A stretch of DNA of 64,000 nt from a phage. The DNA lies in NCBI GenBank assembly GCA_012416205.1, contig GCA_012416205.1_3033.2, one strand, 5' to 3'. The position numbers and the translations under genes are program-made. A model generated the notes under the pieces. It made no database searches. It was not told the origin of the DNA and saw only the letters and a program-made list of their open reading frames with translations. Shown in pieces: positions 1,448 to 29,348 of the stretch (position 1 is the stretch's first letter; every line of letters begins with the position of its first letter).

Positions 1448-3013
1448 ATGACTATCAAAACTAAAGCTGAACTTTTGAACAAATGGAAGCCATTACTGGA
1501 AGGTGAAGGTTTACCGGAAATTGCTAATAGCAAACAAGCGATTATCGCTAAAATCTTTGAAAACCAGGAAAAAGATTTCCAGACAGCTCCAGAGTACAAA
1601 GACGAAAAAATCGCTCAGGCGTTCGGTTCTTTCTTAACAGAAGCTGAAATCGGTGGTGACCACGGTTACAACGCTACTAACATCGCTGCTGGTCAGACTT
1701 CTGGCGCAGTAACTCAGATTGGCCCAGCTGTTATGGGTATGGTACGTCGTGCTATTCCTAACCTGATTGCTTTCGATATTTGCGGTGTTCAGCCGATGAA
1801 CAGCCCGACTGGCCAGGTATTCGCACTGCGCGCAGTATATGGTAAAGACCCAATCGCTTCCGGTGCTAAAGAAGCATTCCACCCAATGTATGGTCCAGAT
1901 GCAATGTTCTCTGGTCAGGGTGCTGCTAAGAAATTCGCTGCTTTGAAAGCAAGTGATACTCTTGAAGTTGGAACTATTTACACCCACTTCTTCCAGGAAA
2001 CTGGTACTGTATATCTGCAAGCTACAGAAGCTAAACAAATTGATTCTACTGCATCTGACGCAGCTAAATTAGATGCTGAAATTAAGAAACAAATGGAAGC
2101 TGGTGTACTGGTAGAAATCGCTGAAGGTATGGCTACTTCTATCGCTGAACTTCAGGAAGGTTTCAACGGTTCTACCGATAACCCATGGAATGAAATGGGC
2201 TTCCGTATCGATAAACAAGTTATCGAAGCTAAATCTCGTCAACTGAAAGCTGCTTACTCTATCGAATTAGCACAAGACCTCCGCGCTGTTCACGGTATGG
2301 ATGCTGATGCTGAACTGTCTGGTATTCTGGCTACCGAAATCATGCTGGAAATCAACCGTGAAGTTGTTGATTGGATTAACTACTCAGCTCAGGTTGGTAA
2401 ATCTGGTATGACCCTGACTCCGGGTTCTAAAGCTGGTGTGTTTGACTTCCAGGATCCAATTGATATTCGTGGTGCTCGCTGGGCGGGTGAATCCTTTAAA
2501 GCTCTGTTGTTCCAGATTGACAAAGAAGCAGTTGAAATTGCTCGTCAGACCGGTCGTGGTGAAGGTAACTTCATTATCGCTTCCCGTAACGTAGTTAACG
2601 TTCTGGCTTCAGTTGATACTGGCATTTCTTATGCTGCACAGGGTCTGGCTACCGGCTTTAACACTGATACTACCAAGTCAGTATTTGCTGGTGTTCTGGG
2701 TGGTAAATACCGTGTATATATCGACCAGTATGCTAAACAGGATTATTTCACTGTAGGTTATAAAGGTCCGAACGAAATGGATGCTGGTATTTACTACGCT
2801 CCATATGTAGCTCTGACTCCGCTGCGTGGTTCCGATCCGAAGAACTTCCAACCAGTAATGGGATTCAAAACTCGTTACGGTATCGGTATCAACCCATTTG
2901 CAGAATCCGCTGCTCAGGCTCCGGCTTCTCGCATCCAGAGCGGTATGCCTTCTATTCTGAATAGCCTTGGTAAAAACGCTTACTTCCGCCGTGTATATGT
3001 TAAAGGTATCTAA
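1448..3013 (+). CDS. 23: Major capsid protein gp23
   Basis: 521 aa ORF with T4 gp23 length and recognisable sequence; strong codon usage; position between 22 and 24. Confidence 0.96.
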   Translation: MTIKTKAELLNKWKPLLEGEGLPEIANSKQAIIAKIFENQEKDFQTAPEYKDEKIAQAFGSFLTEAEIGGDHGYNATNIAAGQTSGAVTQIGPAVMGMVRRAIPNLIAFDICGVQPMNSPTGQVFALRAVYGKDPIASGAKEAFHPMYGPDAMFSGQGAAKKFAALKASDTLEVGTIYTHFFQETGTVYLQATEAKQIDSTASDAAKLDAEIKKQMEAGVLVEIAEGMATSIAELQEGFNGSTDNPWNEMGFRIDKQVIEAKSRQLKAAYSIELAQDLRAVHGMDADAELSGILATEIMLEINREVVDWINYSAQVGKSGMTLTPGSKAGVFDFQDPIDIRGARWAGESFKALLFQIDKEAVEIARQTGRGEGNFIIASRNVVNVLASVDTGISYAAQGLATGFNTDTTKSVFAGVLGGKYRVYIDQYAKQDYFTVGYKGPNEMDAGIYYAPYVALTPLRGSDPKNFQPVMGFKTRYGIGINPFAESAAQAPASRIQSGMPSILNSLGKNAYFRRVYVKGI

Positions 3014-3028
3014 TCTTTGACGATTTAA

Positions 3029-3044
3029 GGGACCTTCGGGTCCC
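3029..3044 (+). terminator. GC hairpin GGGACC-TTCG-GGTCCC followed by T-run after gene 23
   Basis: Perfect 6-bp stem with TTCG tetraloop followed by TTT directly after the gp23 stop. Confidence 0.6.
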
Positions 3045-3061
3045 TTTAGTTGTTTTTATGG

Positions 3062-3069
3062 TATAAATA
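3062..3069 (+). promoter_or_regulatory. Late promoter box TATAAATA upstream of gene 24
   Basis: Exact TATAAATA 27 bp upstream of the gene 24 ATG. Confidence 0.65.
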
Positions 3070-3096
3070 AATCATATAAACCAAAAGGAAAGCGCA

Positions 3097-4380
3097 ATGG
3101 CTAAAATCAACGAACTTCTGCGCGAATCAACCACAACGAATAGCAACTCAATCGGTCGCCCAAATCTCGTTGCTTTGACTCGCGCTACCACTAAATTAAT
3201 ATATTCTGACATTGTAGCAACGCAAAGAACTAATCAACCTGTTGCTGCTTTTTATGGTATCAAATACCTTAATCCAGATAACGAATTTACATTTAAAACT
3301 GGTGCTACTTACGCTGGCGAAGCTGGATATGTAGACCGAGAACAAATCACAGAATTAACAGAAGAGTCTAAATTAACTCTCAATAAAGGCGATTTATTCA
3401 AATATAATAATATCGTTTATAAAGTATTAGAAAATACACCATTTGCTGATATTGAAGAAAGTGATTTAGAATTAGCTCTTCAGATTGCAATTGTTCTTTT
3501 AAAGGTTCGTCTATTTTCTGATGCTGCAGTAACAAGCAAATTTGAAAGCTCTGATAGTGAAATTGCGGATGCTAGATTCCAGATTAATAAATGGCAAACC
3601 GCAGTTAAATCTCGTAAACTTAAAACTGGCATTACAGTTGAATTAGCACAAGATTTAGAAGCAAATGGATTCGATGCTCCTAATTTCTTGGAAGATTTGC
3701 TTGCAACCGAAATGGCAGATGAAATCAATAAAGATATTCTGCAGTCTTTGATTACAGTGTCAAAACGCTATAAAGTTACAGGAATTACTGATACTGGATT
3801 CATTGATTTGAGTTATGCATCTGCACCTGAAGCCGGTCGTTCATTATACCGAATGGTGTGTGAAATGGTTTCACATATCCAGAAAGAATCAACTTATACA
3901 GCAACGTTCTGTGTTGCTTCAGCTCGTGCTGCTGCGATTCTTGCTGCATCAGGTTGGTTAAAACATAAACCAGAAGATGACAAATATCTTTCACAAAATG
4001 CCTATGGGTTCTTAGCTAATGGTTTACCGCTTTATTGCGATACCAACAGCCCATTAGATTATGTAATCGTTGGCGTAGTAGAAAATATTGGTGAAAAAGA
4101 AATTGTTGGGTCAATTTTCTATGCTCCGTATACAGAAGGTCTTGACTTAGATGACCCTGAACATGTAGGTGCATTTAAAGTTGTAGTTGATCCAGAAAGT
4201 TTGCAGCCATCTATCGGTTTATTAGTTAGATATGCTTTATCTGCAAATCCTTACACTGTAGCAAAAGATGAAAAAGAAGCAAGAGTAATTGACGGTGGAG
4301 ACATGGATAAAATGGCGGGTCGTTCAGATTTGTCTGTTTTATTAGGTGTTAAGCTACCAAAAATTATCATTGATGAATAA
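3097..4380 (+). CDS. 24: Capsid vertex protein gp24
   Basis: 427 aa, follows gp23, T4 gp24 length. Confidence 0.92.
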   Translation: MAKINELLRESTTTNSNSIGRPNLVALTRATTKLIYSDIVATQRTNQPVAAFYGIKYLNPDNEFTFKTGATYAGEAGYVDREQITELTEESKLTLNKGDLFKYNNIVYKVLENTPFADIEESDLELALQIAIVLLKVRLFSDAAVTSKFESSDSEIADARFQINKWQTAVKSRKLKTGITVELAQDLEANGFDAPNFLEDLLATEMADEINKDILQSLITVSKRYKVTGITDTGFIDLSYASAPEAGRSLYRMVCEMVSHIQKESTYTATFCVASARAAAILAASGWLKHKPEDDKYLSQNAYGFLANGLPLYCDTNSPLDYVIVGVVENIGEKEIVGSIFYAPYTEGLDLDDPEHVGAFKVVVDPESLQPSIGLLVRYALSANPYTVAKDEKEARVIDGGDMDKMAGRSDLSVLLGVKLPKIIIDE

Positions 4381-8151: not shown

Positions 8152-8769
8152 ATGTACCACTTTGTATATGAAACAACAAATCTAATAAATGGTAAAAAGT
8201 ATATAGGAAAACACTCTACTGATGACTTGAATGATGGTTACCTTGGTTCCGGTAAGGCAATTCAGCAGGCTATAAAGAAATATGGTGAAAACAATTTCTC
8301 TAGAACAATACTAAAAGAGTTTAAAACTTCCGAAGAAGCGTACATGTATGAAGAAGAAATTATAACTCCTGAAATAATAAAAAGCAAAAATTATTATAAT
8401 ATGAAACCCGGTGGAATTGGTGGAATTGTTATGACTACAGAGGTTATAGCAAAGATGAAAGAATCTTCCGCTAAGAGATTTGAAAACTCACCGGGCACGG
8501 TATTAGGTACAACTTGTTACACTAATGGAACTAAAAATATTTTTATTAAACCTGGAGAACTTGTTCCAGAAGGATTTGTAAAAGGGATGGTTCATCCTAA
8601 TAGAAAGTCCAGAAAAGGATGTAAAGTCAAACCGACTACCACAGGAACTTTTTGGGTCAATAATGGTGCAATAAATAAATTAATACAGCCAGACGGTATT
8701 ATTCCCGACGGATTTATTAAAGGTCGTCTCATGAAAAGAGATTCTAAAGGCAAATTTAGTAAGGCATAA
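8152..8769 (+). mobile_element. Free-standing GIY-YIG homing endonuclease (Seg family, SegE-like position)
   Basis: N-terminal KYIGKHS...DGYLGSG...EF GIY-YIG module, 205 aa; inserted between inh and uvsW where T4 carries a seg gene. Confidence 0.8.
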
Positions 8770-8771
8770 TT

Positions 8772-10280
8772 ATGGATATTAAAGTACATTTTCACGACTT
8801 CAGTCATGTACGCATCGATTGTGAAGAGAGCACGTTCCACGAATTAAGAGATTTCTTTTCGTTTGAGGCCGATGGATATAGATTTAACCCTCGCTTCAGA
8901 TATGGCAACTGGGATGGACGAATCCGTCTTTTAGATTATAATCGTCTTCTTCCATTCGGCTTAGTCGGGCAAATTAAAAAGTTCTGTGATAACTTTGGCT
9001 ATAAAGCCTGGATTGACCCACAAATTAATGAAAAAGAAGAATTATCAAGAAAAGATTTTGATGAATGGCTTTCTAAATTAGAAATCTATTCAGGAAATAA
9101 AAGAATTGAACCACACTGGTATCAAAAAGATGCAGTGTTCGAAGGATTAGTTAATCGTCGTAGAATTCTTAATCTTCCAACATCTGCAGGTAAATCGTTA
9201 ATTCAAGCTCTGCTTGCTCGGTATTATTTGGAAAATTATGAAGGTAAAATTCTTATCATTGTTCCAACAACTGCTCTGACAACTCAGATGGCTGATGACT
9301 TCGTTGACTATCGTTTATTCAGTCATGCAATGATAAAGAAAATTGGTGGCGGAGCATCAAAAGATGATAAATATAAAAATGATGCACCAGTCGTTGTTGG
9401 TACATGGCAAACTGTAGTAAAACAACCGAAAGAATGGTTCTCACAGTTTGGAATGATGATGAATGATGAATGCCATCTTGCTACAGGAAAAAGTATTTCA
9501 TCTATCATATCAGGTTTAAATAACTGCATGTTCAAATTTGGTCTATCGGGTTCATTACGCGATGGCAAAGCCAATATCATGCAGTATGTTGGAATGTTTG
9601 GTGAAATATTTAAGCCAGTAACGACTTCTAAATTAATGGAAGATGGACAAGTAACTGAGTTAAAAATTAATAGTATTTTTCTTCGCTATCCCGATGAGTT
9701 CACTACTAAATTAAAGGGAAAAACTTACCAAGAAGAAATAAAAATTATTACTGGGCTCAGTAAAAGAAATAAATGGATCGCTAAATTAGCTATTAAACTT
9801 GCACAAAAAGATGAAAACGCTTTTGTCATGTTTAAACACGTATCGCACGGTAAAGCTATTTTCGATTTAATTAAAAATGAATACGATAAAGTTTATTACG
9901 TATCAGGGGAAGTTGATACCGAAACACGCAACGTAATGAAAACCTTAGCTGAAAACGGTAAAGGAATAATTATAGTAGCTAGTTATGGTGTATTTTCTAC
10001 TGGTATTTCAGTTAAAAATCTGCATCACGTTATTTTAGCACACGGTGTTAAATCTAAAATTATTGTATTGCAAACAATAGGTCGCGTATTACGTAAGCAT
10101 GGTTCTAAAACAATCGCAACAGTCTGGGACCTCATAGATGATTGCGGTGTTAAGCCAAAATCTGCTAATACGAAAAAGAAATACGTTCATTTGAACTATC
10201 TTTTAAAACACGGCATTGATCGTATTCAGCGCTACGCAGATGAAAAATTTAATTACGTAATGAAAACAGTTAATTTATAA
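8772..10280 (+). CDS. uvsW: UvsW DNA/RNA helicase
   Basis: 502 aa; Walker A-like PTSAGKS and DECH box (MMNDECHLATG); T4 UvsW length. Confidence 0.92.
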   Translation: MDIKVHFHDFSHVRIDCEESTFHELRDFFSFEADGYRFNPRFRYGNWDGRIRLLDYNRLLPFGLVGQIKKFCDNFGYKAWIDPQINEKEELSRKDFDEWLSKLEIYSGNKRIEPHWYQKDAVFEGLVNRRRILNLPTSAGKSLIQALLARYYLENYEGKILIIVPTTALTTQMADDFVDYRLFSHAMIKKIGGGASKDDKYKNDAPVVVGTWQTVVKQPKEWFSQFGMMMNDECHLATGKSISSIISGLNNCMFKFGLSGSLRDGKANIMQYVGMFGEIFKPVTTSKLMEDGQVTELKINSIFLRYPDEFTTKLKGKTYQEEIKIITGLSKRNKWIAKLAIKLAQKDENAFVMFKHVSHGKAIFDLIKNEYDKVYYVSGEVDTETRNVMKTLAENGKGIIIVASYGVFSTGISVKNLHHVILAHGVKSKIIVLQTIGRVLRKHGSKTIATVWDLIDDCGVKPKSANTKKKYVHLNYLLKHGIDRIQRYADEKFNYVMKTVNL

Positions 10281-28112: not shown

Positions 28113-28190
28113 ATACTATCACAAAGGAGCTATACTGTAAACAACTTTATGCAATCTTTGGAAAATAAAAAAGGACTCCCGAAGGAGTCC
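28113..28190 (-). promoter_or_regulatory. Terminator hairpin (GGACTCC-CGAA-GGAGTCC) followed by AT-rich UP-like tract and GTTTAC(18)TAGTAT early-promoter-like element
   Basis: Same architecture as the cassettes at 44723-44804 and 61033-61113. Confidence 0.45.
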
Positions 28191-28195
28191 TCAAC

Positions 28196-28414
28196 TTATG
28201 CTTTCTGCTTACCAAAACGAGAAGCATCATCTCGAAGAACCGCACGTGCTCGGCGCATGATCTTCTCAACAGTTTGATTGATACGAGAGTTCGACCCACG
28301 CTTGTAGCCAGCGCGTTTAGAATCACCAACTTTCTTTTCAACTGCTTTCTTTGCTTTAGCTTGTTTTGCCATTATAAATTCTCTTTTAAATGAAAATGCA
28401 GGACTTATTGGCAT
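28196..28414 (-). CDS. Small lysine/arginine-rich basic protein of unknown function
   Basis: Core MAKQAKAKKAVEKKVGDSKRAGYKRGSNSRINQTVEKIMRRARAVLRDDASRFGKQKA; start is either 28414 or 28372. Confidence 0.5.
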   Translation of the reverse strand: MPISPAFSFKREFIMAKQAKAKKAVEKKVGDSKRAGYKRGSNSRINQTVEKIMRRARAVLRDDASRFGKQKA

Positions 28415-28616
28415 TGCCTGCGCAAGCCCTCAAGGGGAACATAGGTTTTTGGATATTTAACGACCAGGATAACCATAAACCCGTCATCATTCACATTCAA
28501 GAGGTACACCGTAAAACTGCCGGGGTCTTAAAACTATAATGATTCGCAAATCATTAATCAGACAGTTCGACGGCTCCTCGATTTAGCTCACACTAAGGCA
28601 GTGAATCTCCAATAAA

Positions 28617-28865
28617 TTACTTCAGTGTTACCACAAAGTGACGAACTGCTTTTCGTGCAGCAGAAGCCAGAGGCTTAGCATATTTAAGTTCATCTTTTTC
28701 CTGAAGCTCAGCAGCTAATGCAGTTTGAGCAGGATTCAGATGTTTGAAATAACGCAGGATTTCAAGAGCTTCGGCTTCAACATCAATAGATGCGCCATAG
28801 TTTTCGTGACCATTATTCCATGCGTTTCGTTGCAGTTCAAGAGCGTGTTGTAATTGTTTAATCAT
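28617..28865 (-). CDS. rIII: Lysis inhibition accessory protein rIII
   Basis: 82 aa, T4 rIII length; located just upstream of gene 31 as in T4. Confidence 0.85.
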   Translation of the reverse strand: MIKQLQHALELQRNAWNNGHENYGASIDVEAEALEILRYFKHLNPAQTALAAELQEKDELKYAKPLASAARKAVRHFVVTLK

Positions 28866-29012
28866 TTAAAAATTCTCGTTAGAGATTAAAACTCGGTAGT
28901 CACGTTCTTCTGAATTTCATCTTCTTTCGACAGATCTCTCAGTTGTAGACTACCACATAGAATTGTTCGGTTAACTTATTATTCCGACACCCAATTCATA
29001 TTATTATTTATA

Positions 29013-29348
29013 TCACTTATAAAGACACGGAATAGCTTTATAGTGACAAGTAACGAATTTTTGTTTAATTTCTTTTGGCTGCTTAAGACCCAGAGCTACA
29101 AAAGGATGCGGAACATTTCGAATTTGACCAACTGGAAGAGAAGTCAAATCACCAACTTCGCAGAAACCTTCAGGAACATCAGGACCGACAGAGTGAACTA
29201 CACATAGTTCAGGAACTTCACCTTGAACACGTTTACCGATAATAAGTCCTGATTCTGTAACTTCTTCATCACCGGCTTGTGCAGGTTCAGAAACTAAAAT
29301 AACATATTCACCGACAGCACGAATTGGTAGCTGTTGTACTTCAGACAT
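29013..29348 (-). CDS. 31: GroES-like co-chaperonin gp31
   Basis: 111 aa (T4 gp31 length); between rIII and 31.1/cd. Confidence 0.9.

Follow-up and report, generated by a model that had tools for sequence, protein, structure and literature searches.

A modular non-coding RNA spacer with a ToxI-like unit between rIII and 30.9 in T4-like phages

In the annotation of bacteriophage T4, gene 30.9 is placed at 130364-130540 and rIII at 130785-131033, and nothing is annotated in between. Even in T4, the reference lytic phage, the tract has thus stayed unannotated, and none of the RNA modules described below is in Rfam. What does the tract hold? We addressed this question in a 64,000-nucleotide (nt) stretch of phage DNA (contig GCA_012416205.1_3033.2 of assembly GCA_012416205.1), which as a whole is called the window here and in which the 245 nt up to the start of 30.9 are 99.6% identical to the T4 reference NC_000866. 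The window is that of T4 itself or of a phage almost identical to it. An earlier note, made from the letters of this DNA, had suggested that the tract could be a structured leader or a small RNA. The comparison of T4-like phages gives solid support to the reading of this spacer as a conserved, non-coding, sense-strand RNA built of modules, one of which, module F, is likely a homolog of the antitoxin RNA ToxI.

Modular architecture of the rIII-30.9 spacer

The tract is indeed non-coding, and it extends slightly beyond the 28415-28616 given in the earlier note (Table 1). Only three open reading frames (ORFs), of 34 to 49 amino acids (aa), touch it on either strand, which agrees with its description as poor in ORFs, and all three are interrupted by 1-nt indels in close relatives. 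Since these relatives differ by single-base indels, we ruled out that the tract is coding; database records leave it blank or fill it with spurious small ORFs. The absence of a promoter was also borne out: our scan revealed neither a sigma-70-like promoter nor a terminator inside the tract, and the TATAAATA late box has zero occurrences within it. The sole mismatch to NC_000866 in the tract, at position 28523, falls in helix P3 of module D, where the window has GGCAG and T4 has GACAG, i.e., a swap between U-G and U-A that keeps the P3 pairing.

The predicted fold of the tract was only moderately better than those of shuffled sequences (z = -2.6), so that the real support for structure is comparative rather than thermodynamic. 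A search of the window region and seven related loci against Rfam 15, at a permissive E value, returned no family at or above its gathering threshold. The best match inside the tract, at module N, was DUF2815 RNA, which scored 14.5 bits where its gathering score is 41.2, and this resemblance was absent in one relative (L024). A chance-level match to Atu_C8 was set aside, since it corresponded to the 30.9 terminator itself.

The comparison covered 83 T4-like loci in which rIII and 30.9 are both present; these contain 58 distinct spacers, and the blocks defined in them by iterative nhmmer searches were named F, D, A, I, B, C, N, G, J, and K. The spacer was long throughout, from 123 to 419 nt in 58 of the 58 versions. 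The presence and order of the modules varied among phages, with arrangements such as B-A-C, A-B-C, C-B, and F-D-B-C-N, the last being that of T4, which adds a weak hairpin on the ribosome-binding site. Klebsiella phages carry J-B-F-A-C-G, ESh30-type phages have the 135-nt module A precisely at the D/B junction, and RB69 has module I at that same junction. Between T4 and RB69, identity reached 100% for D, 94% for B, and 96% for C and N together, against 86% for rIII and 89% for gene 31; between T4 and a second RB69-type phage (locus L054), it was 92-98% for the modules and 73-83% for the flanking genes. The modules are thus more conserved than the genes around them.

Covariation across T4-like phages revealed compensatory changes in D, B, and F. 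On the opposite strand, the G-U pairs of D and B would become A-C, which identifies the gene-sense transcript as the RNA. Of the suggestion of a structured leader or small RNA, what stands is a conserved sense-strand RNA with several helices and compensatory changes; a single leader does not, as the tract combines independent modules in a mosaic that differs in order and content from phage to phage.

The ToxI-like module F and the structured modules B and D

In ToxIN abortive-infection (type III toxin-antitoxin) systems, the ToxN endoribonuclease is neutralised by ToxI, an RNA pseudoknot. In the Pectobacterium system, its 36-nt repeat reads AGGTGATTTGCTACCTTTAAGTGCAGCTAGAAATTC (PMC8610362), and the numbering and key residues used here are those of PMC3475682. 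In Klebsiella T4-like phages (L013-type), module F is GGTGATTTGCTACCAAAGTGCAGCTAGAAAT and agrees with ToxI at about 31 of the 33 aligned positions. When searched with blastn, this Klebsiella-type unit was found in 66 small mobilizable plasmids, at 3 to 10 places in each; in one of them, pNMEC-O75B, 5.6 copies of the exact ToxI unit lie immediately upstream of an annotated ToxN/AbiQ toxin gene. The RB69-type F, AGGTGATTCGCTACCTTAAGTGCGGCTAGAAAAT, shows the compensatory pair U9C/A25G, UU for UUU, and an extra 3' A. These same variants are found in the pseudo-ToxI of phage PhiTE, and the RB69-type F retains the essential CUA.

In T4, F occupies the slot directly 5' of D, which is also that of the unambiguous ToxI-like units of its RB69-type relatives. 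Its central stack is kept by two compensatory changes, from U9-A25 to C9-G25 and from G10-C24 to A10-U24. Among 15 sequences including ToxI itself, the ToxI pseudoknot pairs were 94.4% paired with a covariation of 0.444, whereas slid controls did not exceed 0.143. The core pairs tested (U9-A25, G10-C24, and C11-G23; G2-C15, G3-C14, and U4-A13) were recovered in this set, three pairs being altered on both sides; U4-A13 is broken (A-G) in the T4 subgroup. According to the alignment, T4 F retains GCUA and with it C27 and U28, each of which is essential for ToxI antitoxicity (PMC3475682). The neighbouring 1-nt insertion and the loss of G30 make the function of T4 F uncertain. At its 3' end F carries an AAAU motif (28581-28584), which is present in the aligned T4-type and ToxI-type variants and absent in the outlier L028. 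We consider T4 F likely to be homologous to ToxI on account of its positional orthology and the chain of intermediates, and not of a pairwise score.

Across several phage families, 200 GenBank records contain ToxI-like units, unannotated in all of them. The T5-like Klebsiella phage pzk-kv7 carries about 1.9 units (L352 2497-2572) within a tRNA array, straight after tRNA-Ile and followed by a partial duplicate of this tRNA gene. In Salmonella phage SeKF_80, one complete unit (L353 2505-2544) lies between two genes, with GAAAU-type sites on both sides, and precedes a terminator. Module F resembles the pseudo-ToxI of PhiTE in being phage-encoded, non-coding, and unannotated, and the PhiTE sequence suppresses ToxN after expansion (PMC3475682). 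ToxI arrays consist of 1.5 to 5.5 tandem repeats, whereas T4 F is one unit without a toxN gene nearby. A putative resemblance of F to the type I-F repeat and of C to the type I-E repeat of clustered regularly interspaced short palindromic repeats was dropped, because the hairpins do not fit.

Module B was present in 56 of the 58 distinct spacers. Its stem S1 (GACGGG/CCUGGUC) comprises 6 base pairs (bp) and a bulge, with a conserved UUAUCC loop and an A-rich loop, CGUUAAAUAUCCAAAA(A), while stem S2, of up to 7 bp, pairs the S1 loop with sequence beyond the conserved CGUUAAAUAxxxAAAA loop. In 29 distinct B sequences, S1 and S2 together were 81.5% paired, with a covariation of 0.414 (slid controls, at most 0.14), and 8 pairs were altered on both sides. 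The B covariance model identified exactly one copy in the 64-kb window (63.2 bits). B has the covariation-supported H-type pseudoknot with an A-rich loop that characterizes CptI/TenpI-type antitoxins: like them it is compact (about 46 nt) and combines a very short first loop with a long conserved A-rich loop, which is placed to contact stem 1 as reviews describe for CptI and tenpI (PMC5086642; PMC12283969). It differs from CptI/TenpI in being single-copy, and the likeness is to the descriptions in reviews, not to antitoxin sequences.

B was also located outside T4-like phages, by scanning viral contigs for its pattern and filtering the matches with the B model. In one unrelated phage contig, it fills the 58-nt gap between tRNA-Asp and tRNA-Pro within an array of 12 tRNAs; in a second unrelated phage family, it is within a stretch of about 1 kb poor in ORFs and precedes tRNA-Pro and tRNA-Leu by about 80 nt; and in a third unrelated phage, it is near a tRNA-Ile. 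Matches of 25 bits to the B model in viral contigs were discarded, as they were inside a 209-aa ORF. No ToxI-like units were found in the B-carrying uncultivated phages, and neither a B-like array nor an adjacent toxin gene was seen in plasmids, Escherichia coli, or bacterial contigs among the matches listed. The tRNA-array slot of B in these phages is like that of the T4 stable RNAs C and D (species 1 and 2; rnaC/rnaD), which are likewise small structured RNAs, co-transcribed and processed with their neighbours. The T4 modules differ from rnaC/rnaD in lying inside an mRNA instead of a tRNA cluster, and reading the sequences by eye revealed no resemblance. Since B is found in the same two kinds of genomic slot as the known antitoxin mimic, we infer that B may be a stand-alone small RNA of this same functional class, the antitoxin mimics.

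Two observations on B stand apart from this argument. Uncultivated phage contigs L188 (about 2340-3250), L159 (about 8700-9640), and L195 have about 1 kb without a convincing ORF and with B inside, and that of L159 also holds two tRNAs; such regions, which have no match in GenBank phages, may be a larger RNA-gene island. The tRNA region of pzk-kv7 contains a hairpin (L352 3296-3360; GUGGGG...CCCCAC), followed by GUUAAACGUUCAAG and with possible pairing between its loop and downstream sequence, which looks B-like or pistol-like and reached only 12 bits with the B model.

Module D folds into helices P1 (GAGG/CCUC), P2 (GCCGU/ACGGU), and P3 (AACUGUC/GGCAGUU) and a P4 hairpin (UAAUGAUU/AAUCAUUA). 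It was 99.1% paired over all cells, against 22-60% in slid controls, with five pairs altered on both sides and invariant G-U/U-G pairs that fix the strand as gene sense. D is restricted to T4/RB69-type phages, and none was found outside T4-like phages. Module C was detected by nhmmer in 45 of the 58 spacers, 5' or 3' of B depending on the phage; its stem has just 3-4 bp, so its structure is weakly supported. The position of N holds other hairpin modules (G, K, and L) in other phages. In minimum-free-energy folds of the final 48 nt of the spacer, most of 36 distinct variants showed at least partial pairing between the purine-rich Shine-Dalgarno stretch of 30.9 and a run of pyrimidines upstream of it, in hairpins that are weak (about -3 to -8 kcal/mol).

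Feature coordinates, further modules and the protein gp30.9

Table 1. Features of the rIII-30.9 locus, in window coordinates
Feature	Coordinates	Strand	Description
Module F	28578-28614 (core 28581-28612)	-	Single diverged ToxI-like pseudoknot unit, UUGGAGAUUCACUGCCUUAGUGUGAGCUAAAU
Module D	28493-28580	-	88 nt, four helices
Module B	28438-28492 (core 28440-28485)	-	H-type pseudoknot
Module C	28423-28440	-	Small conserved hairpin with flanks, GUUCCCCUUGAGGGCUUG
Module N	28396-28423	-	Hairpin GCGCAGGCAAUGCCAAUAAGUCCUGCAU
Ribosome-binding-site hairpin of 30.9	28379-28396	-	Weak, UUUUC...GAGAA
Non-coding spacer rIII-30.9	28373-28616	-	244 nt
30.9 coding sequence	28196-28372	-	58 aa; ATG at 28372, from T4 annotation and conserved MAKQ
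rIII coding sequence	28617-28865	-	Upstream neighbour; 82-aa ORF at the same position as annotated T4 rIII
Module G	28892-28956	-	Three-helix RNA between gene 31 and rIII
Gene 31	29013-29348	-	
Intrinsic terminator	28162-28192	-	9-bp GC-rich stem (28171-28192) and T run

Every gene at the locus is on the minus strand. The terminator 3' of 30.9 closes the 31-rIII-30.9 transcription unit; it was the only convincing one found in the scan, and the record of a relative annotates the same feature. The GTTTAC early-type promoter for 30.8 lies past this terminator. Immediately after gene 31, the window has the late promoter TATAAATA, which is annotated in a relative.

Module G lies just 3' of this late promoter in T4, within the leader of rIII, and is found upstream of 30.9 in Klebsiella, Yersinia, and Serratia-type relatives. 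It has conserved internal loops (CUACAAC / AAGAACGUG) and a hairpin loop, GUCGAAAGA, and compensatory changes affect all three of its helices (e.g., GGGAGC/GCUCCC, GGUAGU/ACUACC, and GGUGGA/UCCACC). The 64-kb window holds no additional copies of B, C, or G. Module A, of about 135 nt (CGGCAAGUGCAUGCUACC...GCUAACGGUGUGCAACAGAUAAGAG) and with several covarying helices, is absent from the window and occurs in relatives (L002 1400-1535; also L013, L010, and L011, among others); many T4-like phages have it precisely at the D/B junction. It was found in 403 GenBank phage records as a single copy per genome, unannotated or beneath spurious small ORFs. Neither A nor G had a match in Rfam. Further small hairpin modules occur in the spacers of relatives and not in T4, namely I (CACGCGUCAGAAAAAGGUUAUCUGUCUAAGUCGUG), J (with a conserved UGUACG loop), and K, at loci such as L003 1354-1393 (RB69), L026, L017, and L013, among others.

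The start of 30.9 had been left between 28414 and 28372 in the earlier note. This ambiguity is now settled: among relatives, only MAKQ... is kept and the 14-aa extension from 28414 is not conserved, being absent or different, so that the start is the ATG at 28372. Annotation of the gene is inconsistent, as many records take an extended ORF of 68-72 aa and the UniProt entry at this place is a 97-aa "11.1 kDa protein in Gp30-rIII intergenic region." The peptide quoted in the note was correct, as was its estimate that about one-third of the residues are lysine or arginine (11 lysines and 8 arginines, 19 of 58, or 33%). The protein gp30.9 matches the profile of PHROG 1427 (E = 2.3e-31), a family annotated as of unknown function, and has no match in Pfam and no sequence match in the PDB. 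The likeness to histone-like, ribosome-associated, or nucleic-acid-binding proteins proposed in the note is a suggestion from composition. Homologues occur in T4-like phages alone, where they are called hypothetical, save for occasional evident mislabels, one of them being "1,4-alpha-glucan branching enzyme." AlphaFold predicts, with low confidence (predicted local distance difference test score of 67), a disordered basic N terminus and one C-terminal helix (residues 29-53). In a T4 time course, the 30.9 RNA was classed as "early" and the protein was undetected in the omics data (PMC9697503, supplement). TifA (T4 gp61.4), a protein inhibitor of ToxN, is small and basic with a basic helix (PMC10853763), as is gp30.9; the two show no sequence similarity (BLASTP E = 15).

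Decoy RNAs, leader or relic: weighing the explanations

As the explanation of the spacer we favour, with a probability of roughly 45%, an array of small decoy-type RNAs carried within the 31-rIII-30.9 message. The spacer would be transcribed in both the early and the late 31-rIII-30.9 message, and F, D, B, C, and N would form a row of independently folding modules, exchanged and shuffled among T4-like phages, that act as small RNAs and not as a leader. At least one of them would derive from a type III antitoxin. Release from the message may occur by host RNases or by a toxin cutting at conserved AAAU sites, those at the F/D border and in the loop of B being possible entry points for the toxin or for host RNases. 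The modules could then mimic host defence RNAs, or act as decoys for them, against RNA-targeting abortive-infection nucleases, with F as a solitary antitoxin mimic of the type that PhiTE expands to escape ToxIN, and the last small hairpin may additionally dampen 30.9 translation. A more far-reaching version, possible in our view and rather doubtful, makes the spacer an RNA counter-defence island of recombining solitary defence-RNA mimics (F, B, and D here; A, G, I, J, and K elsewhere), each of which would disarm a different RNA-dependent immune system (for example, a type III toxin-antitoxin family), the units being released through toxin or tRNA-type processing.

Several results weigh against such a role. 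A ToxI model built without the T4-type rows, of which T4 F is the top match in the window, scores it at a weak 13.3 bits (E = 1.8; 128 kb searched), whereas positive controls scored 34-51 bits. Near the ToxN-contact region, T4 F carries an insertion of 1 nt and a deletion, and its helix ii contains an A-G mismatch. The module lacks an AAAU cleavage site on its 5' side, so that AA^AU does not bracket the unit, and it is not repeated in tandem (no repeats by Tandem Repeats Finder over 28150-29050, and a single match of the model). Stem S2 of B is poor in T4, reduced to GG/CC and possibly a bulged AU/UA. No bacterial counterpart was found for B, D, C, and N: blastn with the T4 spacer returned no match in plasmids or in E. 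coli genomes, and of at least 120 single matches to the B pattern in bacterial genomes, 80 were checked with the model and none was confirmed. Discrete small RNAs from the tract are themselves a prediction. Moreover, a single PhiTE pseudo-ToxI unit is inactive (PMC3475682), a plasmid-borne E. coli toxIN strongly restricts wild-type T4, T2, and T6, and T4 needs TifA against chromosomal toxIN, dropping about 100-fold when TifA is missing (PMC9391042). Since T4 is restricted by plasmid-borne toxIN, F alone does not neutralise that ToxN, and the decoy function is unproven. Being diverged and single-copy, T4 F is probably weak, tuned to another relative of ToxN, or a reservoir for expansion; taken together, the restriction of T4 by toxIN and the inactivity of the single PhiTE unit suggest that F may be differently tuned, only additive, a reservoir, or a relic.

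The main rival reading, which we judge unlikely, is a cis-acting structured intercistronic leader that stabilises the 3' end of rIII and/or sets the translation rate of 30.9; perhaps the basic gp30.9 binds its own leader, as gp32, RegA, and ribosomal proteins do. The tract does lie within one transcription unit without an internal promoter or terminator, every T4-like locus examined had B together with 30.9, most variants have a partly paired ribosome-binding site, and gp30.9 is very basic with a predicted helix. The pairing at the ribosome-binding site is weak, however, and a position-specific test of a cis-leader or riboswitch of 30.9 failed: the distance from B to the start of 30.9 ranges from about 60 to 250 nt among T4-like loci, the order of the modules changes, and B also occurs among or beside tRNAs of unrelated phage contigs, far from any locus of the rIII/30.9 type. 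Nor would a leader be expected to include F, likely derived from a trans-acting antitoxin RNA, or G, which changes from the leader of rIII in T4 to a place upstream of 30.9 in other phages. It is less probable still that the modules are selfish elements spread via recombination between T4-like phages, or decaying remnants, such as a vestigial ToxI capture, with no present function in T4. Their mosaic presence and absence, their very high identity between otherwise diverged phages, the degraded state of T4 F relative to ToxI, and the lack in T4 of modules A and I, which sister phages carry at the same junction, are what this explanation would predict. Against it, compensatory changes show selection on RNA structure, and the spacer, with B retained almost throughout, was never lost or shortened below 123 nt in an otherwise tightly packed genome.

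Two further explanations concern the nature of the sequence itself. B shares with the env25 pistol self-cleaving ribozyme (PMC6101554) a hairpin whose loop pairs downstream, followed by CGUUAAAUA, and pistol RNAs are phage-associated (PMC4604425), so that B might be a related catalytic RNA that processes the message. We hold this to be very improbable: neither P2 and P3 helices nor a G-U cleavage junction could be placed, the sequences 3' of B differ between phages, and Rfam gave no match even at E = 10 (271-nt search). A pistol or hammerhead assignment of B was accordingly rejected, since P2, P3, and the catalytic core are missing and conservation does not extend to the 5' AUGAUG flank. That the tract is a protein-coding gene, degenerate or overlooked, is the least credible of all. 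Small hypothetical ORFs do appear in some records (58 aa in SA20RB and three short ones in ESh30); the short ORFs of the window and the single-base indels between close relatives contradict it, as do substitutions that are compensatory in RNA helices and a conservation above that of the real genes nearby.

An array of decoy-type RNAs thus remains the explanation that we prefer, with structural findings that are solid and a function that is a testable hypothesis. To our knowledge, PhiTE is the one phage for which an encoded mimic of ToxI has been described. Our literature search found no description of the rIII/30.9 spacer among reports of T4 small RNAs, no report of ToxI-like units in T4-like phages, and none of the B and D RNAs. 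Read conservatively, the results add at least two well-supported new families of structured RNA, B and D, in a model genome. If the decoys are true, RNA-based counter-defence would grow from PhiTE alone to hundreds of T4-like, T5-like, and other phages, the long-unexplained non-tRNA units of phage tRNA arrays would gain a testable role, and B and D would be usable as defined baits for unknown host nucleases. The logic of a counter-defence island, if true, would likewise explain the presence of such units in phage tRNA arrays.

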